A stretch of 64,000 nt of DNA from a virus. The notes below the pieces were generated by a model. The model made no database searches. It worked only from the letters and a program-made list of their open reading frames with translations, and was not told the origin of the DNA. Within the stretch, counting starts at the first letter, position 1; every line of letters starts with the position of its first letter. The DNA is taken from IMG/VR virus record IMGVR_UViG_3300025438_000010, positions 1 through 64,000 of that record; one strand, given 5' to 3'. The translations under genes were made by a program, and so were the position numbers. Shown in pieces: positions 15,536-35,807 of this stretch.

Positions 15536-15598
15536 GAACACCAACGGTCCCCGCCCTGGGTAAAAATGCCCGGGGTGGGTCTGACCAAAAAGGACTAG

Positions 15599-16507: not shown

Positions 16508-16699
16508 TCAAGCGGCCCGGCTTGCAGACAGACTCTTTGAGGATATACAGCTGGCAAGGACACGAGACGAGCACATTCGTGTAACGGCTAGGGCTAATGA
16601 GGCTCGCGAGCTAGCCAACGGCTTGCAATTATTAATTAAATAAAATACTATGCTATTTTATTAATTAATAATTTGTTTGTCAAATCGACAGGAGAGGAC

Positions 16700-16798
16700 A
16701 TGAACGAACCTACAACCTGCTTCTGGTGCGATCACCCGCTGAATTCCGAGGGGATCTGCTCTCACTGCGCCAGCGATTTGCGTATACTAGATAAGTAG
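16700..16798 (+). CDS. 32-aa CxxC-CxxC peptide
   Basis: GGAGAGG SD; MNEPTTCFWC...CSHC. Confidence 0.5.
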   Translation: MNEPTTCFWCDHPLNSEGICSHCASDLRILDK

Positions 16799-16919
16799 TG
16801 TAGAAATAGACACTACCTGCACCGAAGGGGCTTACCTCCTTTCACCCTAGCGGTGTAGGGCTCAGAGAAGAGCTACTGAAGGCCCCCCGTTCTTCCCAGC
16901 GGGGGGTCTTCTTCTTTTA
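16795..16919 (+). ncRNA. candidate sRNA with anti-SD loop
   Basis: TATACT -10 at 16783; four hairpins; loop UUACCUCCUUUC; terminator with U-tail. Confidence 0.55.
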
Positions 16920-17021
16920 TTGCCAGGATTCAGAAGATCTGTCGAGACTTTCCGTGAGACGGAAAAGGTCCCCGTACAAAGTTAATTTTAAACTTGTACG
17001 GAAATGTGCTATAAATGAACT

Positions 17022-17168
17022 ATGACAGAAACAGAAGCACTACCCAGCATATTCGCAATATTTATTGTTGTTCCTACATTGGTATCCGCTTTCGTAATCA
17101 TTTGGTTCTTTGGCCGTGCACAGATGAAGGCGGATTACTACCCCGAGCACTGGAAAGATGTTCCGTAA
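17022..17168 (+). CDS. 48-aa single-TM protein
   Basis: MTETEALPSIFAIFIVV...; its stop is the TAA of the first CCGTAAAA box. Confidence 0.6.
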   Translation: MTETEALPSIFAIFIVVPTLVSAFVIIWFFGRAQMKADYYPEHWKDVP

Positions 17169-17224
17169 AAAAATTTAACCGGGTGCTATATAATAAAAAC
17201 ACGACGGCCAGAAAGGAGAAAAAA

Positions 17225-17584
17225 ATGGCTACCACATATGAAGGGAAGGAATTCATTTTTACCTTCCCCGGTTCAGAGACAAACTACGATCTCAACATCT
17301 GGGATCGCAGGGGGTACGAGACCGAATACGCAGAGGAGGGCTGGGCTATCAGTGTCTATGAGATCCCATACATCGGCTCACCGTATGGCTCAGGCGAGTT
17401 CCGTGAGGACCTCAGCTTTGACCTCACCCCAGAAGAAGCCAAGAGCCTAACCCTGGGATGGGATCCGGCGCTCGGAGGGGACTACTGCCCGGACTCCGAC
17501 TTCTGGCTTGATGTTCAGGGGTTCATGGACACCTACACGAACATCCCGGCTCGAGTACGCGAACTACTCGAGAACCTGCCCTAG
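17225..17584 (+). CDS. hypothetical acidic protein (cassette 1)
   Basis: start corrected to MATTY after GAAAGGAG. Confidence 0.75.
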   Translation: MATTYEGKEFIFTFPGSETNYDLNIWDRRGYETEYAEEGWAISVYEIPYIGSPYGSGEFREDLSFDLTPEEAKSLTLGWDPALGGDYCPDSDFWLDVQGFMDTYTNIPARVRELLENLP

Positions 17585-17665
17585 ATTGCTGGCGAGGACC
17601 TCCGTAAAAAACGACGGGGGTCCTTGCTACAATACAAATACAACGGTCCGAGAAAAGGAGAAAAA

Positions 17666-17908
17666 ATGGACTACATGTTAGAACAACCCGAGCCCCAGGC
17701 TATTCGGGAAGAAAAAAGAAACCTAGTTTGTTTCAACGACGACTGCGCCATGTTTGAGTCCGAGGTAGAGATTCTTGTAGAGATTGAATACTGGAGTGAC
17801 ACCGAGGCACGGTTCGATTGGGAGTGCGACTCCTGCCGAACAATGTACGATCGAGAGTTCAATCCGATGGATGACATCGATTGGGATTCCTACTACGAAG
17901 GGAGATAG
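17666..17908 (+). CDS. acidic Zn-ribbon-like protein (cassette 2)
   Basis: AAGGAG SD; two Cys pairs. Confidence 0.7.
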   Translation: MDYMLEQPEPQAIREEKRNLVCFNDDCAMFESEVEILVEIEYWSDTEARFDWECDSCRTMYDREFNPMDDIDWDSYYEGR

Positions 17909-17910
17909 TG

Positions 17911-18105
17911 ATGTATAACGGCAGGTATGGCACTGTTGAGTGCCTGGTGTGTGGGAAAGATATAGAGCCAGGATCGGAGGAGGCCGTAAGCCTTCACGAC
18001 GGCGAGGATATCTCACCCGTTGCTCACCTATTCAGCTGGATGTGCGACAGCGATTGCGTTGAAGAATACGCCGACAACAATGAGTCAAGCTACTTCGAAG
18101 GGTAG
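17911..18105 (+). CDS. acidic Cys-containing protein
   Basis: CLVCG...CDSDC. Confidence 0.65.
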   Translation: MYNGRYGTVECLVCGKDIEPGSEEAVSLHDGEDISPVAHLFSWMCDSDCVEEYADNNESSYFEG

Positions 18106-18184
18106 CTACCACGAGGGGCCTGTCCGTAAAAAACGGATGGGCCTCTCGCTATAATAAAAATGTCCGAACGAAAAGGAGAAAAAA

Positions 18185-18709
18185 ATGGGATTGGACATGT
18201 ATCTATCAGTACGGAAATACGTCAGTGCAATTGATTGGAGAGGAGTTGACAAGCTTGGCCCGGAAGAGTCAATCAGCGATTACCCCAACCTTGACTACGC
18301 CGAGGTCACGGAACGGCTTGGATTGAAGCCTTTCATCGCAAATGCGGCACACTCCGGCATGAACGTGACCGCAACCGCTGTCTACTGGAGAAAAGCTAAT
18401 GCCATCCACAAGTGGTTCGTAGACAACCTCGCTGACGGCGTGGATGACTGCAGACCGCTGTGGGTTTCAACCGACCACCTGAAGGAGTTGTTTTTTAACG
18501 TGTGCGAGGTATTAGCTAGCAATAAAGACCCACAGGTAGCCGAGGAGGTTCTTCCATCAGAAGACGGGTTCTTCTTTGGCGACACCAGTTACGGTGAGGC
18601 GTACTGGGATGACCTGGAATACACACAGAAAGCCCTAGAAAAAATCTTGACTCTGGCTGAGTCGGATGAGGGTAAGGCTGTGGACTTCGAGTATCAAGCC
18701 TCCTGGTAG
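18185..18709 (+). CDS. conserved phage protein (MGLDMY/YWRKAN/GFFFG family)
   Basis: motifs recognisable from a widespread phage family. Confidence 0.8.
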   Translation: MGLDMYLSVRKYVSAIDWRGVDKLGPEESISDYPNLDYAEVTERLGLKPFIANAAHSGMNVTATAVYWRKANAIHKWFVDNLADGVDDCRPLWVSTDHLKELFFNVCEVLASNKDPQVAEEVLPSEDGFFFGDTSYGEAYWDDLEYTQKALEKILTLAESDEGKAVDFEYQASW

Positions 18710-18822
18710 GCCTCAAGCGGAAAGACCCTCGGTGAAAGCCGGGGGTTTTTCTGTTTCCGTAAAAAAACAACAATAGGGGTTATATAATAAAAACATAACG
18801 ACGGAGCTACGAAAGGAGAATC

Positions 18823-19539
18823 ATGAAGCTCAAGCGTTCCAAGGACCGGAAGGTCACCAATCTAGTCACACCGAACGGGAAGGCCCCGTCCATTGCTAAC
18901 ACCTTTGGACTACCAGCAGGTAAGGCCTACTCATGCCCCGGCGCGACGTCCATCTGTGAGAGTGTCTGCTACGCGGGCAAGCTCGAGAAGGTATACAAGA
19001 ACGTCAAGGCGGTCCTGGTACACAACTGGGAACTGCTGAAGGACGCGGATCTCGATGAGATGCGACGACTACTCACTGAGATGGTCGACGACTTCATCAC
19101 GGACTGCAACCGACGGCAAGCGCCTAAGGACTTCAGAATCCACTGGGACGGCGACTTCTTCTCGGACACCTACGCTATGGCGTGGAGGATGACGATGGAG
19201 TCACGGCCCGAGGTCAACTTCTGGGTCTACACCCGGACCATGAGTGCGGCACGGTTGCTCAAAGGCACATCCAATCTGTCCCTGTACTTCTCGGCAGACA
19301 ACGAGAACATGCCGATAGCGCTCACGTTACGGCGTGAAGGGATACTGCTTGCCTACCTGGCGGATACTTTTCAGGAAGGTCAGGCACGGATGAAAGAGGC
19401 AACGGGCAAGCCCGGAGCCAAATGCCCGGAGAACACTAAGCAGATCCCATTGATTAGTGTCAACGGCTCGGCATGCATGGTGTGCCAGCTATGTCCTAAG
19501 GGCAAGGCTGACATCGTATTCAGTGCCAGCAAGTCCTAG
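18823..19539 (+). CDS. Gp88-like protein
   Basis: CPGATSIC..CYA, FRIHWDGDF, WVYTR. Confidence 0.75.
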   Translation: MKLKRSKDRKVTNLVTPNGKAPSIANTFGLPAGKAYSCPGATSICESVCYAGKLEKVYKNVKAVLVHNWELLKDADLDEMRRLLTEMVDDFITDCNRRQAPKDFRIHWDGDFFSDTYAMAWRMTMESRPEVNFWVYTRTMSAARLLKGTSNLSLYFSADNENMPIALTLRREGILLAYLADTFQEGQARMKEATGKPGAKCPENTKQIPLISVNGSACMVCQLCPKGKADIVFSASKS

Positions 19540-19633
19540 CGGAGTCCCCCGGTGAGAGCCGGGGGTACTTCCGTAAAAAATAAAATTGCTTGGAGATATA
19601 ATAAAGATAGCAACGACGAAAAGGAGCAAGACA

Positions 19634-19855
19634 ATGGAAACAACTGAGATGACAAATTTCTACCGGAAGCACTACGGAGTTTTGGTAGGGAGAAAAATAA
19701 TCGCAATACGATCAATGTACCCCGAAGAGATGAAACTTTTTATGTGGTACGGAGACCCCGGTGTGGTTATTGAGACCGACAAGGGACTGATTGTCCCCTC
19801 GAGCGACCCGGAAGGCAACTCTCCCGGACAGCTACTGCTAGACGGATTCGAGTAG
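19634..19855 (+). CDS. hypothetical protein
   Basis: AAGGAG SD; PSSDPEGN. Confidence 0.7.
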   Translation: METTEMTNFYRKHYGVLVGRKIIAIRSMYPEEMKLFMWYGDPGVVIETDKGLIVPSSDPEGNSPGQLLLDGFE

Positions 19856-19941
19856 TCCGTAAAAAATTGGGGAGCCTCTCGCTATAATAAAAACAGATAG
19901 CGAGGGGCTTCCCTCAAAAAAAACGACAAAAGGAGAATGAC

Positions 19942-20586
19942 ATGCCTAACTGGGTATCTAATCAAATAAATATCACGGGACCTAAAGAAGAACTCGATAG
20001 GCTCCAAAAGCAAGCCGCAACGCCTTACCAGACTAAATCGTCTGTACTCACCGAAGACGGATTCGAGTGGGTGGACGCAGAGAACCAGGAGGAACTTTCA
20101 TTCTGGAACTTTGTCAGTCCCGACGAATCAATCCTGGAGGAGTATTTTGGCCCGGAGGCTAACAAGACTCTGGAGCAAGCGCTTCGACACGAGACCAACC
20201 ACTGGTACGACTGGAATGTCCGCAACTGGGGAGTCAAGTGGGACGCCAGCTATGTGGGAGTGACCCAAGTGTCTGACACGGAGATTGCCTACACCTTTGA
20301 GACACCGTGGGACGCAGTCGTTCCGGTATTCCTGAAGATGGTGGAGGAGTATCCTGCCCTTGACTTCGAGTACCGATATCTGGAGGAGCAAGGCTGGGGA
20401 GGGGAGCTTCACGCCTCAGAAGGTATCTACTGGATAATGGACGAGTGGGAGATTCCGGAGACACACGAAGACCGCGTGGACAAAATTGGCTACTGCCACT
20501 GTGCGGAGGTCGGCACGCGCGAGGAGGACATCAAGTACTTGTTCGACGATTGTCCCCCAAAAATGGTCTTGATGGCCAGCAAGTAA
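19942..20586 (+). CDS. YubB/DUF1281 ferredoxin-like domain protein
   Basis: MPNWVSN, WYDWNVRNWGVKW, FETPW. Confidence 0.8.
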   Translation: MPNWVSNQINITGPKEELDRLQKQAATPYQTKSSVLTEDGFEWVDAENQEELSFWNFVSPDESILEEYFGPEANKTLEQALRHETNHWYDWNVRNWGVKWDASYVGVTQVSDTEIAYTFETPWDAVVPVFLKMVEEYPALDFEYRYLEEQGWGGELHASEGIYWIMDEWEIPETHEDRVDKIGYCHCAEVGTREEDIKYLFDDCPPKMVLMASK

Positions 20587-20643
20587 GATACTGGAGGGGG
20601 CGAGTAACGGCTCGCCCTCTCTAGTCCTAGAAAAGGAAGAAAA

Positions 20644-20919
20644 ATGGAAGAAGAAACAGAAACTATCGGCGAGGTCGAAAGAACTCTTCACTACTTCGCT
20701 GATGACGGTAACTATGGGTCTGCGGACGGACTTACGATCATGGAGTCTACCCATTGGGACGAAATTGATTGGTCAATTATTGAGGGAGCACCCGAGCACT
20801 TCCGCCCAATGGTTGCCCGGTTGATTACAGAAAGCTATGAACCGGACGCTAATGAACAAGCCCTACGCGCTGAGTTTGCTAAGTACGGGGTTGACATTAG
20901 TGACTATGAGAAAGACTAG
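20644..20919 (+). CDS. acidic hypothetical protein
   Basis: AAGGAAG SD. Confidence 0.7.
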   Translation: MEEETETIGEVERTLHYFADDGNYGSADGLTIMESTHWDEIDWSIIEGAPEHFRPMVARLITESYEPDANEQALRAEFAKYGVDISDYEKD

Positions 20920-21102
20920 TAAGTAACTGGGGGGAATTGACTTGGGGGTTTCCCGTCGTTTCCTCCACGGTGTTGGTGGTCACCGTTATCAAAATCACTA
21001 TTTTAGTTTCCGTAAAAAATGTCTGAGGTGGGAGATACAATAAAGACAACACAGCAACAAGCCCGTTGTTGTGAAAAAATGACGGAGTGAAAGGAGATAG
21101 CA

Positions 21103-21453
21103 ATGGCTATCGTCAGAAAGCGCAAGGTAAGCAAGGTTACGATTGTCGAGGACACCAAGACGGTCACCAAGACCGCCGTGGAACTTACGGACAGCGAGCA
21201 GGAAATCCTGGAGTCGTTTCTGAAGGCACGAACTGAAGAAACCGAAGCCAAGAAGGAGAAGGAACGCCTCTCCGCCCTGGTGAAGGACATTATCGGTGAC
21301 GCTCAGGTCGCTCTGGTGAACGGCGAAGTCCGAGTGGAGTTGCTCCGCTACCCACGAGTGACAATCGACTCGAAGTTGTTGTTCGAGAGTTTCACCGAAG
21401 CCTACGAAGCCACGGCACGCCAGTCCGTGGTCACCCGTATCCAAGCCAAGTAA
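21103..21453 (+). CDS. coiled-coil hypothetical protein
   Basis: GAAAGGAG SD. Confidence 0.75.
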   Translation: MAIVRKRKVSKVTIVEDTKTVTKTAVELTDSEQEILESFLKARTEETEAKKEKERLSALVKDIIGDAQVALVNGEVRVELLRYPRVTIDSKLLFESFTEAYEATARQSVVTRIQAK

Positions 21454-21509
21454 CACACGGGTCGGCTCCCCTCCGGGGGAGTCGGCTCACCCTAACGAAA
21501 GGAAACAAA

Positions 21510-21791
21510 ATGGGAAACATGACGGCACGAGAATTAGCGTTTCTAGGTAATGAAGGATTAGGACTAGACACCGCTATCTCATTCCACCTTACGAGCAATC
21601 ACTTTCCGCCGGTACCGACGATTATGGTCGGCGCGTGTGTCGAAGCGATAGACAACGCTAATGAAGGCGAGTGGGACAAGTTAGTCCAACTACCAGAAGG
21701 TGTGGGGTACCGGGGAAGGACTGTCGCACCGACAAAAGCGATCATTGAGCAACACCACCTTGACTCATTCCTAGACGACACCGAGGACTGA
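21510..21791 (+). CDS. hypothetical protein
   Basis: HLTSNHFPP...HHL; SD. Confidence 0.75.
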   Translation: MGNMTARELAFLGNEGLGLDTAISFHLTSNHFPPVPTIMVGACVEAIDNANEGEWDKLVQLPEGVGYRGRTVAPTKAIIEQHHLDSFLDDTED

Positions 21792-21903
21792 GCGACAAGG
21801 AAGCCCCTGAGAAATCAGGGGTTTCTTTGGTTCCGTAAAAAACTGAAGCGCACGGTTATACAATAGAAGCATACAGGGACAAGCCCTGGAAAAGGAGAAC
21901 GAC

Positions 21904-22245
21904 ATGAGTGATGTAGTAATTATCAAAACTGACGGTACTGTCGAAGCCCACAAGTTGTCCGGGGATTCAACCGCCGACTTCAACCTCATCAGAAACGCCG
22001 TCGAGGGCTTTGTGGAGCGAGTTCCTATCTCTGACTACACCCAACTGATGTGGGTGAACGAGGAGGGCAAGTTGCGTGGACTCCCCCACAACCCGAAGGC
22101 TCAGACCCTCTGGGACTCACAATGGGGAGCCGGAACTGACCGGATTGTGGGAAATGTGGTCATCACGGGTGACGACACCGAAGAAGGCGAAACAGGCACT
22201 CTCCCCGAAGGAGAAGCCGAACGGCTAGTGGCGCTACTGTCCTAG
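21904..22245 (+). CDS. DUF3846 domain protein
   Basis: VNEEGKLRGLPHN..A; IVGNVVITG. Confidence 0.8.
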   Translation: MSDVVIIKTDGTVEAHKLSGDSTADFNLIRNAVEGFVERVPISDYTQLMWVNEEGKLRGLPHNPKAQTLWDSQWGAGTDRIVGNVVITGDDTEEGETGTLPEGEAERLVALLS

Positions 22246-22378
22246 CCGACACGGAGAAGCCCCTGCTACGGCAGGGGTTTCTTTGTTCCGTAAAAAATGT
22301 AAAGGCGTGGCTATATAATAAAACTACTAGCCCAAACGGGTTAGTAAGACGGGAAACATAAAACGAAAGGGGCCAGAA

Positions 22379-22819
22379 ATGGCTAGAAGTATCGCAGTCC
22401 GTATCAAGACGGAGAAGGTTATAGCCTCGCTAGAAGCCTCACTTGAGAAGATGCAGCACGACAAGGAGAACGAGAAGCCACTCAGGGAGAAGTACGACAA
22501 GGAGTTGGAGGCTTGGACTCAGAAGGTCAAGAAGTACGCTCTCACCATGCCCAAGCCTAAGGACATGGACATGGTCGCGGTTGGGGGAGGCTACTACCAC
22601 CGTATTGCCTCGGACAACCCTGAGGATATTGCTGTTCAAATAGTCCTTGCGGTTCCGGCTAATAAGGTTCCAGAACGCCCCGAGGCTCCTGACGCTGTTG
22701 CGGCTTGGCAGTACCGTGATGCGGTGGAGAACATTGAGAACGCGCTCCGGTTGCTCCGTATGACCGACCAAGAAGAAATCAGCACGGGTACTTACAGCAA
22801 AATTGCTCAGTACCTCTAA
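22379..22819 (+). CDS. hypothetical protein
   Basis: 146 aa in cassette 9. Confidence 0.75.
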   Translation: MARSIAVRIKTEKVIASLEASLEKMQHDKENEKPLREKYDKELEAWTQKVKKYALTMPKPKDMDMVAVGGGYYHRIASDNPEDIAVQIVLAVPANKVPERPEAPDAVAAWQYRDAVENIENALRLLRMTDQEEISTGTYSKIAQYL

Positions 22820-22942
22820 CGGCTGGACAGCCCCTCACTACGGTGGGGGTTGTTCCCGTAAAAAATATCGGGCACGGTCTATACAATAAAGACATACCGA
22901 CACCGAGTAAAAGGCTGGGTGCGGTCTACTGAGGAGGTAGTA

Positions 22943-23272
22943 ATGATTATCGAGAGTGCGGTCAGGGATAGTTCCCTGGAGTTGTACCTGGACAATGCTC
23001 ACGGCATTGCCTTTGACACCTGCCACAAGATTTATGTCTTGATGGACAGCGAGCAGATGGGTCTGATGCGGGAGTATGAGTATGACCCTTTGATTTCTTC
23101 AGACGAGATGACACCTGCCGAGATGTACGAAACGGTGGCTGGCTGGTACGAGGAGTCTTGCCAACTGCGGTTTATCCAAGCCGTCACCACAGCCCCAGAT
23201 AACCCCAACGAGGGCTATGTAGATATAGTTCCCCAGTTCCTACTGTTCAACGAGGACGAGGACGAGGACTGA
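22943..23272 (+). CDS. acidic hypothetical protein
   Basis: GAGGAGG SD; FDTCHKIY. Confidence 0.75.
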   Translation: MIIESAVRDSSLELYLDNAHGIAFDTCHKIYVLMDSEQMGLMREYEYDPLISSDEMTPAEMYETVAGWYEESCQLRFIQAVTTAPDNPNEGYVDIVPQFLLFNEDEDED

Positions 23273-23366
23273 TAAGGAGAGTGCCCCTCTACGGAGGGGT
23301 ACTTTCCGTAAAAAGTGGCGTGGTGCGCCGATACAATAAAGACACGGACAGCAAAGGAGGACAATT

Positions 23367-23549
23367 ATGTCTGAAAAAGTGACGGTGGCACACCTGCCTA
23401 CCTGTAACTTCTGTACCAACCTGGCAGGATATGACGCTAGGACGGTGTTAGGCGCGTGGGCTTACCTATGCGAGGAACATTTCTACCCCATGACCGAGGG
23501 ACGGCTTGGGACTGGCTACGGTCAGAAACTAATCCTGGAGGAGGCATGA
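23367..23549 (+). CDS. small Zn-binding phage protein
   Basis: CNFC...YDART..WAYLC..H. Confidence 0.75.
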   Translation: MSEKVTVAHLPTCNFCTNLAGYDARTVLGAWAYLCEEHFYPMTEGRLGTGYGQKLILEEA

Positions 23550-23692
23550 TGGCAATAGTAGTTAGGCGCTACGGCGTTACACCAACACGCGCCGGTCTGG
23601 TATCGACCTGCGTGGAGTGTGGGAGAGTATTCGACCTCACCGATGAAACTGACGCTAACGAGTTAGCCTACGGACACGACTGCGAGGTGTGA
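23546..23692 (+). CDS. small Zn-binding protein
   Basis: CVEC...GHDC. Confidence 0.65.
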   Translation: MMAIVVRRYGVTPTRAGLVSTCVECGRVFDLTDETDANELAYGHDCEV

Positions 23693-23790
23693 GTGACACG
23701 GCACGCCCCCTCTCCGGAGGGGGTGCTGTCGTTGTCCCGTAAAAAATTGGGAGTAGTGGGAATAAAATAAAGGTATCAACGGGAGGAGGA

Positions 23791-23967
23791 ATGATGATAT
23801 GTCAATACTGTAATGAGAACCCTGTCCGGGAAGGCTGGGCTATCACCTGCGCCGTGTGTACTTTCATGTGTACACGGTGCAAGGAGGACACACCCTACGA
23901 ATTAGGAGTGTCCTGGGATAGGTACTGTGACCCCTGCGGTGTTGCGGTGGCTTCTGTCCCATTCTAA
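23791..23967 (+). CDS. Cys-rich small protein
   Basis: GGAGGAGG SD; 4 CxxC. Confidence 0.6.
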   Translation: MMICQYCNENPVREGWAITCAVCTFMCTRCKEDTPYELGVSWDRYCDPCGVAVASVPF

Positions 23968-24086
23968 GCGACTCCCCCTCTCCGGAGGGGGTTTCGCCGT
24001 TCCGTAAAAAACATGGAGGGGGGCTTATACAATAAAGACATGACGGGGGGACACTAGGGCTTTCCGCATAACCTGAGGAGGACACC

Positions 24087-24425
24087 ATGGGTGACCGTTC
24101 GAATATCGCGATTGTCTACCACACCGGAGAAACTATCTACCTGTACGGGCATTGGCTCGGGCATGAAAGTCAGAGGATTGTCGCACGCGCAATTTCTGAG
24201 GGCAGGCGAATGGAAGACGAGTCTTATTTCGCTCGGATTCTTTTTAGCAAAATGATTGCTGAGGACATTGCCGGCGAAACCGGCTTCGGTATCGCACCGT
24301 ATGAGGTAGACCAGGACTACGGCAATCCCACAGTTACCGTGGATTTTCGTGACCACACGGTGATGCACGACAACTGGGATAACGCTGTCCCGTTCGCTGA
24401 CTACCCCCGGCTAGTACTGGTATAG
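24087..24425 (+). CDS. hypothetical phage protein
   Basis: MGDRSNI...YLYGHW.G. Confidence 0.75.
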   Translation: MGDRSNIAIVYHTGETIYLYGHWLGHESQRIVARAISEGRRMEDESYFARILFSKMIAEDIAGETGFGIAPYEVDQDYGNPTVTVDFRDHTVMHDNWDNAVPFADYPRLVLV

Positions 24426-24539
24426 CCTGACGGGAGCCCCTCACTTCGGTGAGGGGCTACCCCGTTCCGTAAAAAATTGGCTACGGCATGGATACAATAA
24501 AGACAACAGCAGGGGAAATACCCCTACGGGAGGAGAGTC

Positions 24540-24875
24540 ATGGATACGGCTACGGTAGTAGGATTGGTGGCTACTACACCACGATATGTAGAAACTATTG
24601 ACGGGAAGCGTGTTTTATCTTTTCGTCTGGCGTGCCCTCAGAAGGGTTACGACAGGGACACCGGCGAGTGGGTGCCTAAAGACACAAACTGGTACACGGT
24701 GCTGTGCTTTGACGATGTAGCAAGCGACTGTGTCGACAGGGTTGGCAAGGGGAGTCGGATTGTTGTAGTTGGTAATCTGATGAAAGTCACAGATTGGTCT
24801 GCTGACAGCCCCTCGGGTACTTCGGTAGAAATACACGCCCACACCCTGGGTAACCTGGGGAAGAACATATCCTAA
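24540..24875 (+). CDS. ssb: single-stranded DNA-binding protein (OB-fold, no acidic tail)
   Basis: TVVG.VAT.P, SFRLA, T.WYTV, KG.RIVV.G. Confidence 0.75.
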   Translation: MDTATVVGLVATTPRYVETIDGKRVLSFRLACPQKGYDRDTGEWVPKDTNWYTVLCFDDVASDCVDRVGKGSRIVVVGNLMKVTDWSADSPSGTSVEIHAHTLGNLGKNIS

Positions 24876-24967
24876 CGGTAACCCCCTCTCCGGAGGGGGA
24901 TTACCCGTCTCCGTAAAAAATCACACGGTGCTTCGGTACAATAAAGATATGGAAAGGAGGTCAGCAA

Positions 24968-25171
24968 ATGTCTGACATAAAATACCCTGAGGTGGAAGTA
25001 GAACTGGTAGGACAGGACGGCAACGCGTTCGCTGTTATGGCAAGAGTGAGCAAGGCTCTCCGCCGGGCTAGTGTGGCTCAGCAGGAGATTGACGAGTACC
25101 TCAAGGAATCTACCTCTGGGGACTACGACCACCTAGTGGCAACCGCCACCCGGTGGGTTACGGTTCACTAA
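24968..25171 (+). CDS. conserved phage small protein
   Basis: LVGQDGNAFA...SGDYDHL. Confidence 0.8.
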   Translation: MSDIKYPEVEVELVGQDGNAFAVMARVSKALRRASVAQQEIDEYLKESTSGDYDHLVATATRWVTVH

Positions 25172-25299
25172 CCCCACACGGCACTAGCCCCTCTTCGGAG
25201 GGGTTATTGTCGTCCGTAAAAAATGCGGTGAGGACACCATACAATAAAGACATAGACAAGGAGGCACTAGAACTCTTTGCTATAACCTGAGGAGGAACT

Positions 25300-25521
25300 A
25301 TGTACGAGGTCGAGACCAGAATGGTCATAACCACACCACGGTGTCCCGAGTGCGGAGAGGCTGGCATTCTCCAAATCCCGGCAGACGGCTACGACCGCTG
25401 GGCAGAGGGTGCGCTTATTCAAGAAGCCTTTCCCAACCTTTCCCTAGCCCTTAGGGAACAACTGAAGACCGGCTATCACGGCGCTTGCTGGGATACGGCT
25501 TTTGGACCCGTCCCTTTTTAG
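25300..25521 (+). CDS. small Zn-binding protein
   Basis: CPECG...LIQEAFP...HGACW. Confidence 0.75.
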   Translation: MYEVETRMVITTPRCPECGEAGILQIPADGYDRWAEGALIQEAFPNLSLALREQLKTGYHGACWDTAFGPVPF

Positions 25522-25650
25522 CCCCACACGGCAATTCCCCGGCTTAGGCTGGGGTTTTGTCGTCCCGTAAAAAATGAGGGAACACGGGAATATAATAAAG
25601 ACATAGACACCAAGCAAAAGGCTTAGTGTCACTACCCTGGAGGAGTACCT

Positions 25651-25926
25651 ATGAGTACACGGGCAAAGGTAAGGGCAAAAGTCCTTGCAGATGGTGGGAC
25701 CTTTGAGGAGGGCTACACCGGCTGGGCAAGCGACACCTACTGGGTCGAGGTAACACTCTCCGATTCAGAAACGGTGTGGGCTTGTGAGGCGACAGAGTAC
25801 GACAGCCTCTGGACCCTGAGGGTCGAGCAAGAGGATAGCGAAACTCGCGCTCAGATGTGGAGCTATGTCTGGGACAAGGTACGCTTTCCCGTAGTTCGCC
25901 GTGATAGCTTCTCACAAGCTGTCTAA
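25651..25926 (+). CDS. hypothetical protein
   Basis: GGAGGAG SD. Confidence 0.7.
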   Translation: MSTRAKVRAKVLADGGTFEEGYTGWASDTYWVEVTLSDSETVWACEATEYDSLWTLRVEQEDSETRAQMWSYVWDKVRFPVVRRDSFSQAV

Positions 25927-26051
25927 CCCCCAAGCCCCTGTCAGAAATGGCAGGGGTTCCTGGGGTGCCGTAAAAAAATTCTATCGAAGGTCGTACAATA
26001 AAGACAACGGCACACGGGGTACGCCTGTGAGCCACTACCTGAGGAGGCACT

Positions 26052-26165
26052 ATGAGTGACAACCCTTTCGACAACCTGGACATTATCAACCAGGACGCGA
26101 TTGACGCGATGGATGACGAAACCGTCAAGACGGTTTGGGAAATCCTTACCAAAGCCGGCTACTAG
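26052..26165 (+). CDS. 37-aa acidic peptide
   Basis: GAGGAGG SD; MSDNPFDNLDIIN... Confidence 0.65.
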   Translation: MSDNPFDNLDIINQDAIDAMDDETVKTVWEILTKAGY

Positions 26166-26222
26166 GCGAGAGAGGGCGGGGAAACCCGCTCTCTCCCCCT
26201 ACCCCAACAGAAAGAGGAAAGA

Positions 26223-26450
26223 ATGTTAGAAAGAATTACACGGGTAAATTACTACTGGAAAGACACGGTAATCCCTGGAGATACTGACGCACAAGTAGTT
26301 ATCCTGAACGATAGCGACAAGTACGAACAAATGTCTAATGATGGAAGTTTCGATGAGCGTATCTGGTTCTACTTTCAGAATGAAGATGAGTTCCAACGAG
26401 CCTTTGACCCCGCTAACACGGAGTTCGAGTTCGTCCTCACCGGAGGATAG
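26223..26450 (+). CDS. acidic hypothetical protein
   Basis: 75 aa; SD. Confidence 0.7.
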   Translation: MLERITRVNYYWKDTVIPGDTDAQVVILNDSDKYEQMSNDGSFDERIWFYFQNEDEFQRAFDPANTEFEFVLTGG

Positions 26451-26591
26451 GTTTTCCTCCCAGGGAAAAAGCACAAGCCCCGCCATTTCTGGCGGGGTTT
26501 TGTGTGTCCGTAAAAAGTTAGGGGACACGGGGATACAATAAAAACATCAGCACGGAACAAGCGGTGTTCTGTGTCTAACCCTGGAGGAACT

Positions 26592-26747
26592 ATGTATTAC
26601 TTTGTTACGGTTATAGAAAAAGCCTCACGAGAGATTGTGGCGACTTATCTTGACGCCTTTGAGTCTGACGCTCACGAGAGGGCTCAGACCATTGGAACCA
26701 TTGAAGGCTACGCGGTGTTCATTACTAGTGGTGACCCACTCTCATAG
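26592..26747 (+). CDS. 51-aa hypothetical protein
   Basis: GGAGG SD in cassette 19. Confidence 0.65.
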   Translation: MYYFVTVIEKASREIVATYLDAFESDAHERAQTIGTIEGYAVFITSGDPLS

Positions 26748-26873
26748 CAACTAGGGGAGCCCCAGCTTAGGCTGGGGTTTCTGCTGTCCGTAAAATTCGA
26801 TCGACACGGACGATACAATAAAAGCACAGACAGGGACACAAGGTTTCTGTCCTAACCCTGGAGGATAGCAATT

Positions 26874-27062
26874 ATGCGTTCACACGATGGATTGGCAGAA
26901 TGGGCTTTGGAACAAGCCACCACACGGGAGCAAATTGCTCACCACATCGAGCGTTTGCGCGATGATGCCCTGATGATTCACGACTACCCCGAGCAGGCTA
27001 TCGCCTTTATCGAGGACGAACTCCGTGAGATTCGGGTGCTACTGGCTAGGGATTCAGACTAG
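26874..27062 (+). CDS. hypothetical helical protein
   Basis: cassette 20. Confidence 0.7.
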   Translation: MRSHDGLAEWALEQATTREQIAHHIERLRDDALMIHDYPEQAIAFIEDELREIRVLLARDSD

Positions 27063-27179
27063 CCAGACACGGAACCCCTCTCCGGAGGGGTTTCGGTCGT
27101 CCGTAAAAATCGATCGAAGGACGGAATACAATAAAAACATCAGCACGGAAATACCGGGCGATTGCTGGGAGGAGTGGCT

Positions 27180-27386
27180 ATGCCCACTTTGGTTGTCACG
27201 GACACCAACAAGATTGGTGTCGATGGTTTGGTGGAAAGGCTTGCCGACCACATCATTATGGTAGTCGATAGGCGCGGGTATGGTGAGCAGGACAATGTCC
27301 ACACCATCACGCTTGCCGACACCATTCGCAACACGGAGGCGCACGGGCTTGCCTGTCGCCTAGGGTTTCTCGCCCACATCGAGTAG
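27180..27386 (+). CDS. hypothetical protein
   Basis: GGAGGAG SD; start MPTL. Confidence 0.7.
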   Translation: MPTLVVTDTNKIGVDGLVERLADHIIMVVDRRGYGEQDNVHTITLADTIRNTEAHGLACRLGFLAHIE

Positions 27387-27516
27387 CCCTGCCCATACTG
27401 TCCCCTCTCCGGAGGGGATAGTGTGCGTTTGCTGTCCGTAAAATTCGATCGAAGCACGGAATATAATAAAGACACAAGCACACGGGAACCCCTGTGGCTT
27501 ACCTGAGGAGGAACTA

Positions 27517-27600
27517 ATGAGTGAAAATATGTGTTCAGGCTGTGGCGATATCTGCCGGGCAAGTGAATCAAAGTGCGGTATCTGTAGAGGGGGGTGGTGA
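27517..27600 (+). CDS. 27-aa CxxC-CxxC peptide
   Basis: GAGGAGG SD. Confidence 0.55.
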   Translation: MSENMCSGCGDICRASESKCGICRGGW

Positions 27601-27603
27601 GAG

Positions 27604-27780
27604 ATGGGCATCACGGAAATGTTCCAACTGATTCGCCAAGTCTGGTCAGACTCTATGTCAGACAATGGCGCTATCTGGGAACGCTCTAACGCGGAACTAC
27701 AGAATGCTAAGGCTAACTACCCCGACCTGTACGAAGAAGCCCTGGCTATGGCATACGAGGCGAGTGTGAATCAACGATGA
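27604..27780 (+). CDS. hypothetical protein
   Basis: ATGA overlap with next gene. Confidence 0.6.
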   Translation: MGITEMFQLIRQVWSDSMSDNGAIWERSNAELQNAKANYPDLYEEALAMAYEASVNQR

Positions 27781-27980
27781 GCCAGACACCAGACACGGCT
27801 TATGGGGTAACGCTCAGTTTCACATTCCACGAGCCACGGAACAAGACACGGGAAGAAGCCGAGCGCTTTATCAACGAGTATGTGAGCAGACTCGCCGAGA
27901 ATGACGAGAGTGACCTACCCGAAGTCCGATGGGACGATGTGGAGTGGAACATCGTGGAACTACTGCCAGAAGCACAGTAA
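27777..27980 (+). CDS. acidic hypothetical protein
   Basis: 67 aa. Confidence 0.65.
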   Translation: MSQTPDTAYGVTLSFTFHEPRNKTREEAERFINEYVSRLAENDESDLPEVRWDDVEWNIVELLPEAQ

Positions 27981-28109
27981 GCCACAAGCAAGCCCCTGGC
28001 GAGAGCCGGGGGTTTTGCTGTCCCGTAAAATTCGATCGAAGCACGGAATATAATAAAGACATAGCACAAGGGCACAAGGTCCTAGTGCTCTAACCCTGAG
28101 GAGAAAGAA

Positions 28110-28430
28110 ATGCTGAAAGAGAAACTGACCACACTGCCGGAGTTGTACAGCACGGACGAGACGAAGGGCGACCTGCCTGCTGTTTATGTGTTCACACCAG
28201 ACGCTGGAGCGACCTGGGTGCTTTGGGAGTACAGCCCCGAAGAAGGACTGGCGTTCGGGCTGTGCGACCTGGGCTTGGGCTTTCCCGAGATGGGATATGT
28301 CTCAGTCCCCGAGTTGGAATCACTACGCGGTAAGTTTGGCTTGCCTGTCGAGGTAGACACCAGCGTCACCACACGGTTCCAGGGCTACGAGAAGGCTGGA
28401 GTGTCGACCCCTGAGTACCTGATGGCTTGA
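28110..28430 (+). CDS. DUF2958 domain protein
   Basis: FTPDAGATW, FGLCDLGLGFPEMGYVS..EL. Confidence 0.85.
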   Translation: MLKEKLTTLPELYSTDETKGDLPAVYVFTPDAGATWVLWEYSPEEGLAFGLCDLGLGFPEMGYVSVPELESLRGKFGLPVEVDTSVTTRFQGYEKAGVSTPEYLMA

Positions 28431-28539
28431 GAGCCGTACCCCCCAGCCCCCACTCCGGTGAGGGTTGGGGCAGTGTGCTCGTAAAATTCGATCGAAGCAC
28501 GGGTTATACTAAAAACATCACAAGGGAAAGGAGACAATA

Positions 28540-28692
28540 ATGTCTTACACTTACAAAATAGTGTTTGTGATAATCACCCTGGGAGTGGTACTCTCTTTCC
28601 ACGACACCTACTGGCCTTGGGCTATGGTTCCTCTGGTGCTTTCGGCACTGGTTGGCGCTATTGGGCTCAGGCTCGGGGGTCGAGGAAAATAA
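28540..28692 (+). CDS. small 2-TM membrane protein
   Basis: AAAGGAG SD; hydrophobic. Confidence 0.6.
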   Translation: MSYTYKIVFVIITLGVVLSFHDTYWPWAMVPLVLSALVGAIGLRLGGRGK

Positions 28693-28834
28693 GTTTTCCT
28701 CCCAGGGGAAAAGGCAGACCCCCTACTTCGGTAGGGGGTTCTGTCATTCCGTAAAAAAGACATAGCACGGAGAATATAATAAAGACATAGACAGGGAGAC
28801 AAAAGGGCTTTCTGCTATAACCTGGGAGGTCATT

Positions 28835-29044
28835 ATGGCTAAGCAGTTTCGAGTCCTCGCAAGCAAGTCGGGCTTCAAGACGTTCGACTTCACTTATGAC
28901 GCACACGAGGAGTCATACGCTCGCAAGGTCGCTAACACACTGAGCGATGAAAATTGGTCAGTGTGGTTTGAGACCCTCGATGACAAGCACCAGAGTGCGG
29001 TCATCAACGACCTAGACTTTGTCTTCGGCAAGACACAGTTCTAA
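28835..29044 (+). CDS. hypothetical protein
   Basis: cassette 25. Confidence 0.7.
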   Translation: MAKQFRVLASKSGFKTFDFTYDAHEESYARKVANTLSDENWSVWFETLDDKHQSAVINDLDFVFGKTQF

Positions 29045-29177
29045 GGCGCACGGCAGACCCCTGGCTTCGGCTAGGGGTTTTGTCGTTCCCCGTAAAATTC
29101 GATCAACACGACTTGTAGAATAGAGATATCACAGAGAGACACTAGGGCTTTCTGGATATCTGGGAAGGAAACAAATT

Positions 29178-29369
29178 ATGTATCAGGTAAAAATCTTTAC
29201 ACACAGAGATGCCTCGCTCTTCGCCGAGTCTGAGACGTTCCAGACTAGGGAGGAAGCCGATGCCTACGCCACGTCTGTTGGCACGGGAGAGGGCTACTGG
29301 ACCGAGATTCACCACTCGCAGGCGGTGTGGAGCAACTTCACATCACACGAGAGGCTTGCCCACCAGTAA
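29178..29369 (+). CDS. hypothetical protein
   Basis: cassette 26. Confidence 0.7.
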   Translation: MYQVKIFTHRDASLFAESETFQTREEADAYATSVGTGEGYWTEIHHSQAVWSNFTSHERLAHQ

Positions 29370-29492
29370 GCCCTCACCCCAGGACCCCACTTCGGTGGGG
29401 CTTCTGGCATTCCGTAAAATTCGATCGACCCTAGGAATACAATAAAGACATAGACAGCAGGGAAATGCCCTGTGTCTACCTGGGAGGCACTA

Positions 29493-29714
29493 ATGGCTCA
29501 CAACTACAAGGTCAATGGCTGGTTCGGTTCTACCACGGCAGGGTGGCGTATCGCCCTGGAGCCTGCTTTCTTCGAGGACATCGAGGAGGCACGGCTCTAT
29601 GCCCAGGGACTCCACCTAGCCAATCAGGAGGCTAACACGGAAGCCTACGAGGTCGAGGTCTTCAGACTTCGGGAGCGAGGTCTTGCTCTCCGAGTCCTGG
29701 AGTACAGCGCCTAG
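29493..29714 (+). CDS. hypothetical protein
   Basis: GGGAGG SD; start MAHN. Confidence 0.7.
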   Translation: MAHNYKVNGWFGSTTAGWRIALEPAFFEDIEEARLYAQGLHLANQEANTEAYEVEVFRLRERGLALRVLEYSA

Positions 29715-29799
29715 GACTACCCCAGGGACCCCACTTCGGTGGGGTTTCTGGAGTTCTTGCGCCGTAAAAATCCCGGAGTGAGATTGGTACAATGGAACC

Positions 29800-29897
29800 A
29801 CACCACAAGGGAGCACAGGGCTCCTCGCGGAGCTCTCCACGAGAGCAAGCTCTAGCTCATCACCAGGACCCCACTTCGGTGGGGTTTCTGGCGTTTA
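29800..29897 (+). ncRNA. candidate small RNA (ORF-less 28th cassette)
   Basis: promoter, two short hairpins and terminator; no SD-led ORF. Confidence 0.4.
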
Positions 29898-29964
29898 TAG
29901 GTTTTTACGATAAAGGTGTGTAGGGTAGTGGCAACTAACTAATATTTATTTCTAGGGGGGAATA

Positions 29965-30423
29965 GTGGCTAATCCAGATACGGACTTACAAGGGGTAGGG
30001 GTCTACTTAGAACAAAGATCCCCTAACAGACTGACCGGAGCTACTCACCAGCTGTTTATTTTTCCGGAGGGCTATACGCCTACACTTCAAAGGATTGTCC
30101 CTAAGGTTTTCCATAGGCATCTCAACAGGTACGCCCCACGGAAGAACTGGATCTGTGCGCCATTACACCTTAACGAGGTTGACTTTTCTGATGAGGAAAC
30201 TGTGGCTGAGTTACTACTACCTCCGCTGGCTCGAGCTGTATGGGGAGAGTACACACTGGTTGGGAAGCCACTACTCTTCGAGGTATCAAAGAAGGACATG
30301 TTCGAGGTTGCTAGGAGAAAACTACCTACGCGGATTAATTTAAAGATAAAGACAATGCGGAGTGCTCACGGCTACCCAGAATCTGTAGTCGAGATCGAGA
30401 AGAAGGAGGAAGCAGATGGTTGA
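29965..30423 (+). CDS. hypothetical protein
   Basis: 152 aa; coupled to the ATPase. Confidence 0.7.
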   Translation: MANPDTDLQGVGVYLEQRSPNRLTGATHQLFIFPEGYTPTLQRIVPKVFHRHLNRYAPRKNWICAPLHLNEVDFSDEETVAELLLPPLARAVWGEYTLVGKPLLFEVSKKDMFEVARRKLPTRINLKIKTMRSAHGYPESVVEIEKKEEADG

Positions 30424-31468: not shown

Positions 31469-31469
31469 G

Positions 31470-33218: not shown

Positions 33219-33234
33219 AAGGAGAAAGAGCATT

Positions 33235-33700: not shown

Positions 33701-33739
33701 GGTTGCTATCATATAGGGGTGGATAAATCATATCGCCCC

Positions 33740-34128: not shown

Positions 34129-34171
34129 TATAGCGCCCCTCGTAGGGGCCGTGAAAGAACGGTTTAACACA

Positions 34172-35758: not shown

Positions 35759-35807
35759 TTTGTTTCCTTTCCCAGGTAGCTTGGCCTTGTGCCTTGCTGA
35801 TGTTTCT

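Follow-up and report, generated by a model that had tools for sequence, protein, structure and literature searches.

Twenty-eight terminator–promoter modules in a salt-lake actinophage form a putative counterpart of the PeSL elements of T4-type phages

The window analysed here, a stretch of 64,000 nucleotides (positions 1 to 64,000 of IMG/VR record IMGVR_UViG_3300025438_000010), comes from an uncultured salt-lake actinophage, whose capsid matches that of DSL-LC01 at 71%; the record as a whole has 75.6 kb, ~57% of the phage genome. On its + strand, between 17163 and 29897, lie 28 terminator–promoter modules with 33 small ORFs, one unit being devoid of an ORF, and every promoter combines a −10 hexamer with the box CCGTAAAA or, in one case, a variant of it. 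This raises the question of what kind of array this is, and of what reads the box.

One promoter class, restricted to one block

The window contains 30 copies of CCGTAAAA, where 1.6 would be expected and the highest of 100 shuffles reaches 5; 27 of these copies, together with one variant, TCGTAAAA (at 28479), form the 28 boxes of the + strand from 17163 to 29769, confirming the count given in the preliminary description. The fixed geometry claimed there holds throughout: in 28/28 promoters a hexamer T-A-n-A-A/C-T begins exactly 26 nt past the first box base (TACAAT in 15 cases, TATAAT in 10, and TAAAAT, TAGAAT and TATACT in one each). The predicted −10 is of the normal actinobacterial sigma-A type, and the reported lack of TTGACA is borne out by a sigma-70 consensus scan, which picks up none of the 28 promoters, the box agreeing with TTGACA at only two of six positions. 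Conservation extends further than first described, over a block tCCGTAAAAaa-N15-aTAYAATAAARACA, with TAYAATAAARACA on the 3' side of the −10. Nowhere in the remaining ~63 kb of the 75.6-kb record does the full motif recur, and it is never found apart from a −10. The 28 promoters are one class, restricted to one block.

The spacer had been described as varying freely, which is contradicted by TTCGATCGA, common to the spacers of seven promoters between 26788 and 29412 (an eighth, at 27101, has ATCGATCGA), and by the tetranucleotide ACGG, present in 14/28 spacers and in 12 of those at offsets 14–20. Units 22 and 23 have identical promoters from the box (CCGTAAAA) to AAAGACA, and units 25 and 16 are 77% identical from the −10 to the ATG. 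Since the box is invariant and most of the spacer is variable, the conservation of the box is better explained by selection than by recent copying.

A sibling promoter on the − strand (35758–35845), cTTGACAa-N19-TATAATAGAAACA, drives a 74-aa gene and carries a canonical −35 element at the box's offset, with the 19-nt spacer, the −10 flank and the leader as in the array. As its TTGACA lies at the same offset, the array box holds the −35 position. The pairing of two elements at rigid spacing is a classic sigma signature, and an alternative sigma factor, either encoded in the missing 43% of the phage genome (the record covering only ~57%) or a host group-2 factor, could read the box together with the sigma-A-like −10. 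We consider this very unlikely, as the −10 has the textbook hexamer of a principal sigma, the sibling promoter pairs the −10 and leader of the array with TTGACA, and Sigma70_r2 and Sigma70_r4 have no match in the 75.6-kb record.

Organization of the units

The view of the units as self-contained, each with its promoter, leader, SD, ORF and terminator, is supported by the hairpins in the gaps and by the SD-led ORFs. A strong hairpin ends just 5' of the next box in 22 of the 27 gaps, about 15 of them with cUNCGg loops, and the 45-mers upstream of the boxes have z < −2 in 23/28. The leaders reach z < −2 in 13/28, with a 5' hairpin ahead of the strong SD, the stem sequences being different. About 34 SD-led ORFs of 47–238 aa are present, one or two per unit; no paralogs were found among the 34 array ORFs, and five of them belong to a Pfam family (GP88, DUF1281_C, DUF3846, SSB and DUF2958). 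With a family assigned to these five alone, the host-takeover or anti-defence role suggested in the preliminary description is conjectural. The typical unit proposed earlier, with small unrelated ORFs and a hairpin before the next box, can thus be retained, except that units 2, 3 and 6 have no terminator in front and that unit 28 has no ORF ahead of its terminator.

All units lie on the + strand, and the ranges given here open on the first base of the box. The array entrance is marked by a palindrome, CCGTACAA-N14-TTGTACGG. Unit 1 (17163–17601; −10 TATAAT at 17189) carries an ORF at 17225–17584 (119 aa), unit 2 (17602–18123) has two, at 17666–17908 (80 aa) and 17911–18105 (64 aa), and unit 3 (18124–18756) has one at 18185–18709 (174 aa), all three being without an upstream terminator. 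The box of unit 1 contains the stop codon of a 48-aa ORF (17022–17168). The ORFs with a Pfam family are found in unit 4 (18757–19570; 18823–19539, 238 aa, GP88), unit 6 (19857–21009; 19942–20586, 214 aa, DUF1281_C/Api92-like), unit 8 (21833–22287; 21904–22245, 113 aa, DUF3846), unit 14 (24467–24910; 24540–24875, 111 aa, SSB family) and unit 23 (28023–28478; 28110–28430, 106 aa, DUF2958). Unit 6 has a second ORF at 20644–20919 (91 aa), and the two genes adjoin in most relatives having both. Gene pairs are also present in unit 7 (21010–21832; 21103–21453, 116 aa, and 21510–21791, 93 aa), unit 11 (23306–23736; 23367–23549, 60 aa, and 23549–23692, 47 aa), unit 18 (25968–26507; 26056–26229, 57 aa, and 26223–26450, 75 aa) and unit 22 (27436–28022; 27604–27780, 58 aa, and 27777–27980, 67 aa), the last also containing a possible 27-aa ORF (27517–27600).

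A single ORF follows the promoter in unit 5 (19571–19856; 19634–19855, 73 aa), unit 9 (22288–22855; 22379–22819, 146 aa, start uncertain, alternative at 22571), unit 10 (22856–23305; 22943–23272, 109 aa), unit 13 (24002–24466; 24087–24425, 112 aa), unit 15 (24911–25213; 24968–25171, 67 aa), unit 16 (25214–25564; 25300–25521, 73 aa, behind a 5' leader hairpin), unit 17 (25565–25967; 25651–25926, 91 aa), unit 19 (26508–26787; 26592–26747, 51 aa), unit 20 (26788–27100; spacer TTCGATCGA; 26874–27062, 62 aa), unit 21 (27101–27435; 27180–27386, 68 aa), unit 25 (28749–29089; 28835–29044, 69 aa) and unit 27 (29412–29761; 29493–29714, 73 aa). The same applies to the three units with the −10 hexamers seen only once, unit 12 (23737–24001; TAAAAT; 23794–23967, 57 aa), unit 24 (28479–28748; variant box TCGTAAAA, TATACT; 28540–28692, 50 aa) and unit 26 (29090–29411; TAGAAT; 29178–29369, 63 aa). 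From its predicted start near 29800, unit 28 (29762–29897) would yield a structured RNA of ~95 nt ended by a terminator, which is near-identical to the one preceding the unit 28 box; having no ORF, it is a candidate for a small RNA or an attenuator located where the array ends. Four salt-lake samples have a stable array, and in one salt-lake sample the first C of the unit 10 box is G.

Fixed backbone and shuffled cassettes in related phages

The array is embedded in a backbone kept by 58 related loci and by DSL-LC01, in which the order is holin, 302-aa gene, array, 152-aa gene, AAA ATPase, VWA protein and again array. Upstream (15230–16507, + strand) are the holin (15230–15535) and the 302-aa gene (15599–16507), and downstream (29965–33218, + strand) an operon of the 152-aa gene, an AAA_5 ATPase (30416–31468) and a VWA protein (31437–33218). 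The 152-aa ORF (29965–30423) is part of this conserved ATPase operon and not a cassette.

Across these 58 loci and DSL-LC01, each lineage has a multi-copy promoter type of its own, among them CCTGnTATAAT, CTARRG-N4-TATAAT, TTCCAGAG..TATAAT and TTGACA-N17-TAnnnT. The type of DSL-LC01 has a dyad GATTC..GAATC around the −10; its 31 copies share a strand and lie within a single block of 20 kb, in a genome that is complete at 129 kb. Homologous cassette genes stand behind whichever promoter type is resident in each genome, as does the DSL-LC01 homolog of the unit 13 ORF, which is found behind a DSL-type promoter. The CCGTAAAA motif occurs in no close or diverged relative; the nearest relatives show a strong enrichment of its GTAAAAA core in one orientation, the positions being variable and some of them within coding DNA.

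The order of the small genes is reshuffled among relatives around the fixed ATPase–VWA operon. The comparison of cassette order proposed in the preliminary description thus shows wide differences, and not an identical order in divergent relatives, which agrees with shuffling. In closer pairs of relatives, insertions, deletions and replacements break 0–21 nt from the promoter motif of their own lineage, so that the expected gain and loss at the motif is seen at the relatives' own promoters, but not at CCGTAAAA itself, which no close relative has. An integron-like, site-specific capture of cassettes was also considered, given that the array is an ordered series of small single-gene units, unrelated to one another, in which the boundary sequence recurs. 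In our view this is extremely improbable: each unit comes with a promoter and a terminator of its own, the boundaries consist of terminator–promoter modules, unlike the imperfect inverted repeats of attC type, the 75.6-kb record shows neither a tyrosine nor a serine recombinase, and the relatives' breakpoints suit homologous exchange at promoters. From the first reading we therefore keep the self-contained modules, the single promoter class, the likeness to PeSL and the shuffled order, and abandon the integron analogy and the free spacer.

Proposed mechanism and what reads the box

We propose that the block is a hyperplastic region built from 28 terminator–promoter modules and is probably an early regulon. 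In each module the GC hairpin would stop the upstream transcript, and transcription would restart ~50 nt on, at the predicted start. Many mRNAs would carry a 5' hairpin, with a putative stabilising role, and a strong SD, so that the small genes may be expressed individually and at a uniform level. The repeated modules would also offer homology for the gain, loss and swapping of genes.

The −10 (TAYAAT) would be recognised by the host principal sigma-A holoenzyme, and the CCGTAAAA box, which is invariant and covers roughly −38 to −31, would stand in for the −35 element. Our preferred, if tentative, reading (probability about 0.4) is that a lineage-specific dedicated factor, presumably acting positively, reads the box within the initiation complex, in place of free sigma region 4. 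This factor, phage-encoded or injected, might be an activator of class-II type, an adaptor for sigma region 4 or a WhiB-like partner, and the 28 units would then be one switchable regulon. In the 75.6-kb record (~57% of the genome) WhiB, MotA, AsiA and HTH_3 have no match, and if the array genes are the very first expressed, an activator encoded by the phage would need to enter by injection or to be produced beforehand from another promoter.

The rigid spacing is equally compatible with direct reading of CCGTAAAA by the host RNAP, as a non-canonical −35-region contact without any phage factor, made either by region 4 of sigma-A, shifted to an unusual register, or by the alpha-CTD on the A-tract, in which case the promoters would be very strong early promoters of host type. 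Immediate-early genes normally rely on the unmodified host RNAP, the 26-nt rigidity and the offset shared with the TTGACA sibling suit an element read in the holoenzyme, no factor gene is present in the 75.6-kb record (~57% of the genome), and the succession of a T-rich terminator tail and an A-tract is similar to the AT-rich regions upstream of PeSL promoters. We nevertheless regard it as somewhat unlikely, since the ability of sigma region 4 to recognise TTGACA is widely conserved, the box agrees with that hexamer at just two of six positions, and related phages, as well as one promoter of this phage, use a good TTGACA. Weak evidence in the same direction is that the genomes of 185,579 prokaryote species gave at least 120 matching stretches, the matches listed all being single-copy and none of them from an actinobacterium.

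In actinobacterial sigma-A promoters the −10 alone often suffices, so the box may be dispensable for initiation. It might then be an operator, at which a repressor or an early shut-off protein of the phage covers the −35 region of each unit, with initiation by the −10 alone. Mycobacteriophages offer a precedent, with multi-copy, asymmetric and oriented sites bound by a monomeric repressor (PMC9283540, PMC6550527), and the DSL-LC01 dyad around the −10 has an operator-like look, the one-orientation enrichment of GTAAAAA in the nearest relatives is stoperator-like, and the entrance palindrome would also fit. We judge an operator unlikely, as pure occlusion would allow positional slack where the spacing is exact in 28/28, 8–11 conserved bases are short for a repressor site, the full motif does not occur away from a −10, and neither a repressor of the HTH_3 type nor an integrase or resolvase was found in the 75.6-kb record. 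A dedicated factor within the initiation complex remains our preferred, tentative reading.

Comparison with known systems

T4 middle promoters, which depend on sigma appropriation by MotA/AsiA, likewise join a normal −10 to a non-canonical box replacing the −35, a combination that defines a temporal class. However, the MotA box differs in sequence and has its centre near −30, the array phage has an actinobacterial host, and MotA/AsiA homologs were not found in the 75.6-kb record. The stoperators of Cluster A phages (L5, Bxb1; PMC9283540, PMC6550527) are also short, asymmetric actinophage motifs in ~30 copies, intergenic and in a single orientation relative to transcription, with an operator copy overlapping a promoter, but they have 13–17 bp, are scattered genome-wide and keep no fixed distance to a −10, whereas every array copy lies 26 nt from its −10 in a single block.

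The host-takeover module of the Bacillus phage SPO1, a terminal region of 12.4 kb whose 26 small genes are early and have strong promoters and RBSs (PMC6873191), is similar in size (~12 kb), in its some two dozen small genes, mostly of unknown function, and in having numerous separate promoters and ribosome-binding sites, both of them strong. It uses canonical host sigma-A promoters for 26 genes in ~12 operons (PMC6873191), in contrast to the 28 promoters for 34 ORFs and the non-canonical upstream box of the array, and its early timing and toxicity are demonstrated, whereas the early timing of the array is a prediction.

The likeness to PeSL, judged apt, is with composite elements of a sigma-70 promoter and a terminator stem-loop, found in hyperplastic regions of T4-type myoviruses, where they mediate shuffling (Arbiol 2010, PMC2839356; Comeau 2014, PMC4122927). 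The array differs from PeSL in the actinobacterial host and lack of kinship to T4, in a promoter made of a sigma-A-type −10 with CCGTAAAA in place of the −35, in a terminator that is always ahead of the promoter with no overlap, and in having 28/28 copies on one strand, in one block. The two share a module composed of stop codon, stem-loop terminator, strong promoter, SD and start codon, which separates small ORFan genes, a copy number in the dozens with clustering in a variable region, and the gain, loss and replacement of genes at the modules, here in the relatives of the array phage. On this analysis, the array is best described as a PeSL-like terminator–promoter cassette array, the putative actinophage counterpart of the T4-type PeSL.

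A repeated promoter with fixed geometry

The box CCGTAAAA is present 30 times in the window, against 1.6 copies expected from dinucleotide shuffles, with 27 of them on the + strand, in the 17163-29769 interval; a variant, TCGTAAAA, is found at 28479. The resulting array of 28 promoter-led units spans 17163-29897, and in all of them (28/28) a TAnnnT hexamer starts exactly 26 nt from the first base of the box, in agreement with the invariant spacing reported in the preliminary description. Most hexamers are TACAAT (15) or TATAAT (10), and TAAAAT, TAGAAT, and TATACT occur once each. Counted column by column, the array promoters give the consensus tCCGTAAAAaa-N15-aTAYAATAAARACA, where conservation extends 3' of the -10, so that the conserved block spans the discriminator up to the likely transcription start, ~7 nt past the -10 at the A of ACA. 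In the 75.6-kb record the combined motif is matched exactly 25 times, each time within the array block and on the same strand, and no TAnAAT followed by AAARA was found outside this block in the record. The array is a real and clean feature, and statistically overwhelming.

The absence of TTGACA from these promoters was also borne out, as a sigma-70 consensus scan picks up 0/28, missing all of them because the -35 fails. The spacer, which had been described as varying freely, is not wholly free: TTCGATCGA is common to seven promoters between 26788 and 29412, and an eighth (27101) has ATCGATCGA. ACGG is present in 14/28 spacers, and a CCGT..ACGG dyad was ruled out as a general promoter feature, since it would involve these spacers only and the offsets vary. 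Recognition of the TAAA-containing boxes by sigma-28 (FliA/WhiG) was also considered, and was rejected on account of the spacing and the -10, neither of which fits.

Two compositional biases were observed in the same region. CACGG shows a strand bias in 25-30 kb (35 on the + vs 2 on the - strand) and occurs 60 times in the array, where ~13 would be expected. Its enrichment concerns coding DNA, promoter spacers, and terminator 5' flanks, and it may act as a polar signal, Chi-like or other. GATC is nearly absent from 20000-30000, with 2 and 7 copies per 5 kb vs 13-27 in most other parts of the genome, and the 7 copies in 25-30 kb are those of GATC-containing promoter spacers (TTCGATCGA, ATCGATCGA, and TTCGATCAA).

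Anatomy of the units

The array carries 34 ORFs of 47-238 aa, one or two per unit and each led by an SD sequence, among which no paralogs were found when they were compared with each other. A Pfam family could be assigned to five of the 34 proteins only (GP88, DUF1281_C, DUF3846, SSB, and DUF2958), leaving 29 without one, and a literature search on DUF2958, DUF3846, and DUF1281 yielded nothing useful. Whereas the ORFs are unrelated, the intergenic modules are similar over 40-80 nt, and those of units 16 and 25 share 77% identity from the -10 to the ATG.

In 22 of the 27 gaps there is a strong GC hairpin, whose end is a few bases 5' of the next box, and the 45-mers upstream of the boxes have folding z-scores below -2 in 23/28 cases (mean -3.9). 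These putative terminators often have a cUNCGg tetraloop and a short tail of the GGGGTTTCT type, and they are missed by an E. coli-style terminator scan because the tails are too U-poor. Units 2, 3, and 6 have no terminator ahead of them. About 18 leaders open with a hairpin at most 7 nt from the predicted start, followed by (c)uAACCCUGRGGAGG; 13 leaders fold with z < -2, with differing stem sequences, and we infer that these are 5' stabilising hairpins. The last unit, unit 28 (29762-29897, + strand), has no ORF, and consists of a promoter, a structured RNA of ~95 nt, and a copy of the preceding terminator, so that the terminators on its two sides are nearly identical. This unit is a candidate for a small RNA or an attenuator, placed ahead of the ATPase operon. 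A scan of 16000-38400 at Rfam gathering thresholds returned no family.

Genomic setting and occurrence of the array

The IMG/VR record, of which the window is the initial 64 kb, is 75.6 kb long, and its completeness is estimated at ~57%. Its capsid protein is 71% identical to that of Actinomycetia phage DSL-LC01, and more distantly related to those of Microbacterium, Arthrobacter, Gordonia, and many Mycobacterium phages. All array copies lie in a variable block between conserved backbone genes. On the left are lysis genes (two M23 peptidases and a holin), the small subunit of RNR, a methyltransferase, and two tRNAs, and on the right an operon (29965-33218, + strand) of a 152-aa gene, an AAA_5 ATPase, and a VWA protein, followed by a minus-strand region and, past it, the genes for the portal, a polyvalent protein of 4527 aa, the protease, and the capsid. 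The polyvalent protein (41198-54781), encoded in the portal-protease interval, has an RNase_T-like exonuclease, a UvrD-type helicase, two ArdC-N, and MPTase-PolyVal domains, and is probably a virion-delivered anti-restriction or DNA-processing protein.

Several other elements flank the array. After the 302-aa gene, the 16632-16912 stretch contains an AT-rich palindrome, then a 32-aa CxxC..CxxC mini-ORF (16701-16798), and a structured stretch with the anti-SD-like loop UUACCUCCUUUC ahead of a terminator. At the array entrance, a palindrome (16972-17001), CCGTACAA-N14-TTGTACGG, one base different from the box, directly precedes TATAAA and a 48-aa hydrophobic ORF (17022-17168); CCGTACAA is found again at 36604, in a divergent intergenic region (36.6 kb), and the palindrome is a possible operator. 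A non-coding, C-rich repeat cluster (CCCCACCCCCC and variants) lies at 36271-36505, between minus-strand units. Also on the minus strand (34722-35626), a 74-aa gene and its terminator are perfectly duplicated as a 300-nt repeat, 605 nt apart, and since the two copies stand behind different promoter/leader modules, one of them TTGACA-N19-TATAAT, this is a visible case of promoter-module swapping.

Twenty salt-lake metagenome runs (2017-2018) contain the same DNA, with 98-99% of the sampled words present. In four DNA runs the array shows a few SNPs, one of them at the first base of a box, and no rearrangement. Units 22 and 23 have identical promoters, at which contigs break. No match was obtained by megablast among 50,697 phage records, either with the array or with the 30-50 kb region. 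Exact-pattern scans with CCGTAAAA-N18-TAYAATAAA returned single chance copies only in IMG/VR, and in metagenome contigs only the same phage (99.9% identical) and an unrelated tandem repeat; in prokaryote genomes there were at least 120 matching stretches, with one copy each and no actinobacterium among the matches listed.

Promoter types and cassette shuffling in related phages

A search with the ATPase retrieved 58 related IMG/VR loci (58-75% identity), none of which has multiple copies of CCGTAAAA; the motif is also absent from DSL-LC01. Most of these loci carry their own multi-copy motif at the place of the array: CCTGnTATAAT (an extended -10), CTARRG-N4-6-TAnAAT, TTCCAGAGtTTnTATAAT, TTGACA-N17-TAnnnT, or, in GC-rich relatives, GCTATCAAGGGA and TGCTACTAAG. 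The complete genome of DSL-LC01 has 31 copies of CTAAAGnnGTTATAAT on a single strand, in promoters of the form GATTCTAAAGnnGTTATAATwGAATC (n=31) that are confined to one 20-kb block (23590-43318) and in which a GATTC..GAATC dyad brackets the -10. Repeated promoters are not mentioned in the description of this phage (PMC10611076). The DSL-LC01 homologs of array genes stand behind DSL-type promoters, and therefore the promoter type goes with the genome, not with the gene.

The backbone genes keep their order (holin, 302-aa gene, array, 152-aa gene, ATPase, VWA, array), and the small genes occur in varying order and to either side of the ATPase operon, as anticipated from the proposal that cassettes are shuffled. 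Between pairs of relatives with ~85-95% nucleotide identity, most breakpoints of indels or replacements are found at 0-21 nt from the resident promoter motif, a placement expected by chance in roughly 4% of cases at about one motif per kb; these breakpoints concern CCTGnTATAAT in relatives with their own motifs, and no diverged relative has the CCGTAAAA motif. In Gordonia phage GodonK, which is cultured but distant, the operons are tightly packed, and neither such an array nor a repeated promoter motif is present; this phage is unfit as a laboratory stand-in.

Other oriented motifs were observed among the relatives. GTAAAAA is enriched in the nearest ones (L042, L047, L052, L054, L056, L057, L058, L076, and L088), with 8-26 copies on the + vs 0-4 on the - strand, and shows no link with a -10; L047 and L057 have several copies that follow a terminator and lie ~50-110 nt upstream of TTGACAAATGTCAG promoters. 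The GC-rich relatives L043 and L098 have 21-24 oriented copies of ttGCTATCAAGGGA or TGCTACTAAG near start codons, resembling the start-associated sequences of Cluster K mycobacteriophages.

What may read the box

In actinobacteria, promoters read by the principal sigma usually have TAYAAT as their -10. On the other strand, a promoter at 35.8 kb (35758-35845) has the form cTTGACAa-N19-TATAATAGAAACA with an array-like leader, and its TTGACA stands at the offset of the box, which therefore occupies the exact -35 position. The box shares 2/6 bases with TTGACA, and its direct reading by the host RNA polymerase seems unlikely. The exact spacing in 28/28 promoters speaks for a reading of the box inside the initiation complex, and this, together with a sequence unlike an ordinary region-4 target, favours a dedicated factor, to which we give a probability of roughly 40%. 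Sigma70_r2, Sigma70_r4, WhiB, and HTH_3 have no match in the 75.6-kb record, which represents ~57% of the genome and does not imply their absence from the whole of it; reading of the box by an alternative sigma factor is very improbable. The box could also be a repressor or shut-off operator, as suggested by the dyad around the -10 in DSL-LC01, the precedent of stoperators (PMC9283540), and the oriented GTAAAAA enrichment in the nearest relatives, but the lack of an HTH_3 match in the 75.6-kb record speaks against a repressor, and we regard this as rather improbable.

Extending the dedicated-factor reading to the relatives, we tentatively consider that the phages of this aquatic actinophage clade might have private "promoter codes", each combining a host-read -10 with the lineage's own box, read by a co-evolving phage factor. 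Possibly injected, this factor would be an adaptor to sigma-A region 4, or an activator, of a kind new in Actinobacteria, with CCGTAAAA being one such code. If so, the phage would have an insulated, all-or-none early regulon, and newly captured genes would be instantly and correctly expressed behind a resident module. Within the clade, the -10 is constant while the upstream element is rewritten per lineage and homogenised within each genome, offering a simple handle to list the early or accessory genes of uncultured phages. For experiments, this raises the question by what means a non-TTGACA box at a rigid position in an actinobacterial promoter is recognised.

Comparison with known systems

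The promoter-early stem-loop (PeSL) elements of T4-type phages are composite modules of a promoter and a terminator stem-loop between ORFans, in hyperplastic regions, and are points of exchange (PMC2839356, PMC4122927). The array closely fits this definition, as the likeness to PeSLs noted earlier implied: between an upstream stop codon and the next SD/start codon its modules combine a promoter with a stable stem-loop, hairpin, box, -10, and SD occur together in 22-23/28 of them, and, like PeSLs, they are concentrated in a variable region beside ORFans. In contrast, PeSL promoters match the host sigma-70 consensus at both -35 and -10, whereas the array promoters fit the -10 only and hold CCGTAAAA at the -35 position. 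The array is also similar in size and gene type to SPO1's host-takeover module, which is marked by small proteins that are expressed early and shut off the host, the architecture alone being compared (PMC6873191).

The analogy with an integron drawn in the preliminary description does not hold. Integrons have an integrase, attI/attC sites, and promoterless cassettes under one Pc, and the array is not an integron, because each cassette has its own promoter, there is no attC-like site at the array, and family searches for Phage_integrase and Resolvase gave no match in the 75.6-kb record (~57% of the genome). Sigma appropriation of the MotA/AsiA kind requires a phage-encoded MotA-type activator and an AsiA-type anti-sigma, and family searches for MotCF and AsiA gave no match in the same record, which lacks ~43% of the genome. 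Cluster A stoperators are asymmetric repressor sites, distributed genome-wide, not tied to promoters, and accompanied by a cognate immunity repressor, whereas every full copy of the array motif is linked to a -10 and all are in one block.

The kind of system is thus known, a PeSL-like early cassette array, of which the early timing is predicted. It would extend the PeSL principle, by which a repeated terminator-promoter module is an expression unit and a recombination joint at once, from the T4-type phages of Gram-negatives to a large clade of uncultured aquatic actinophages. What is new in this variant is its presence in an actinophage, the rigid non-canonical surrogate of the -35, and the lineage-specific promoter types.
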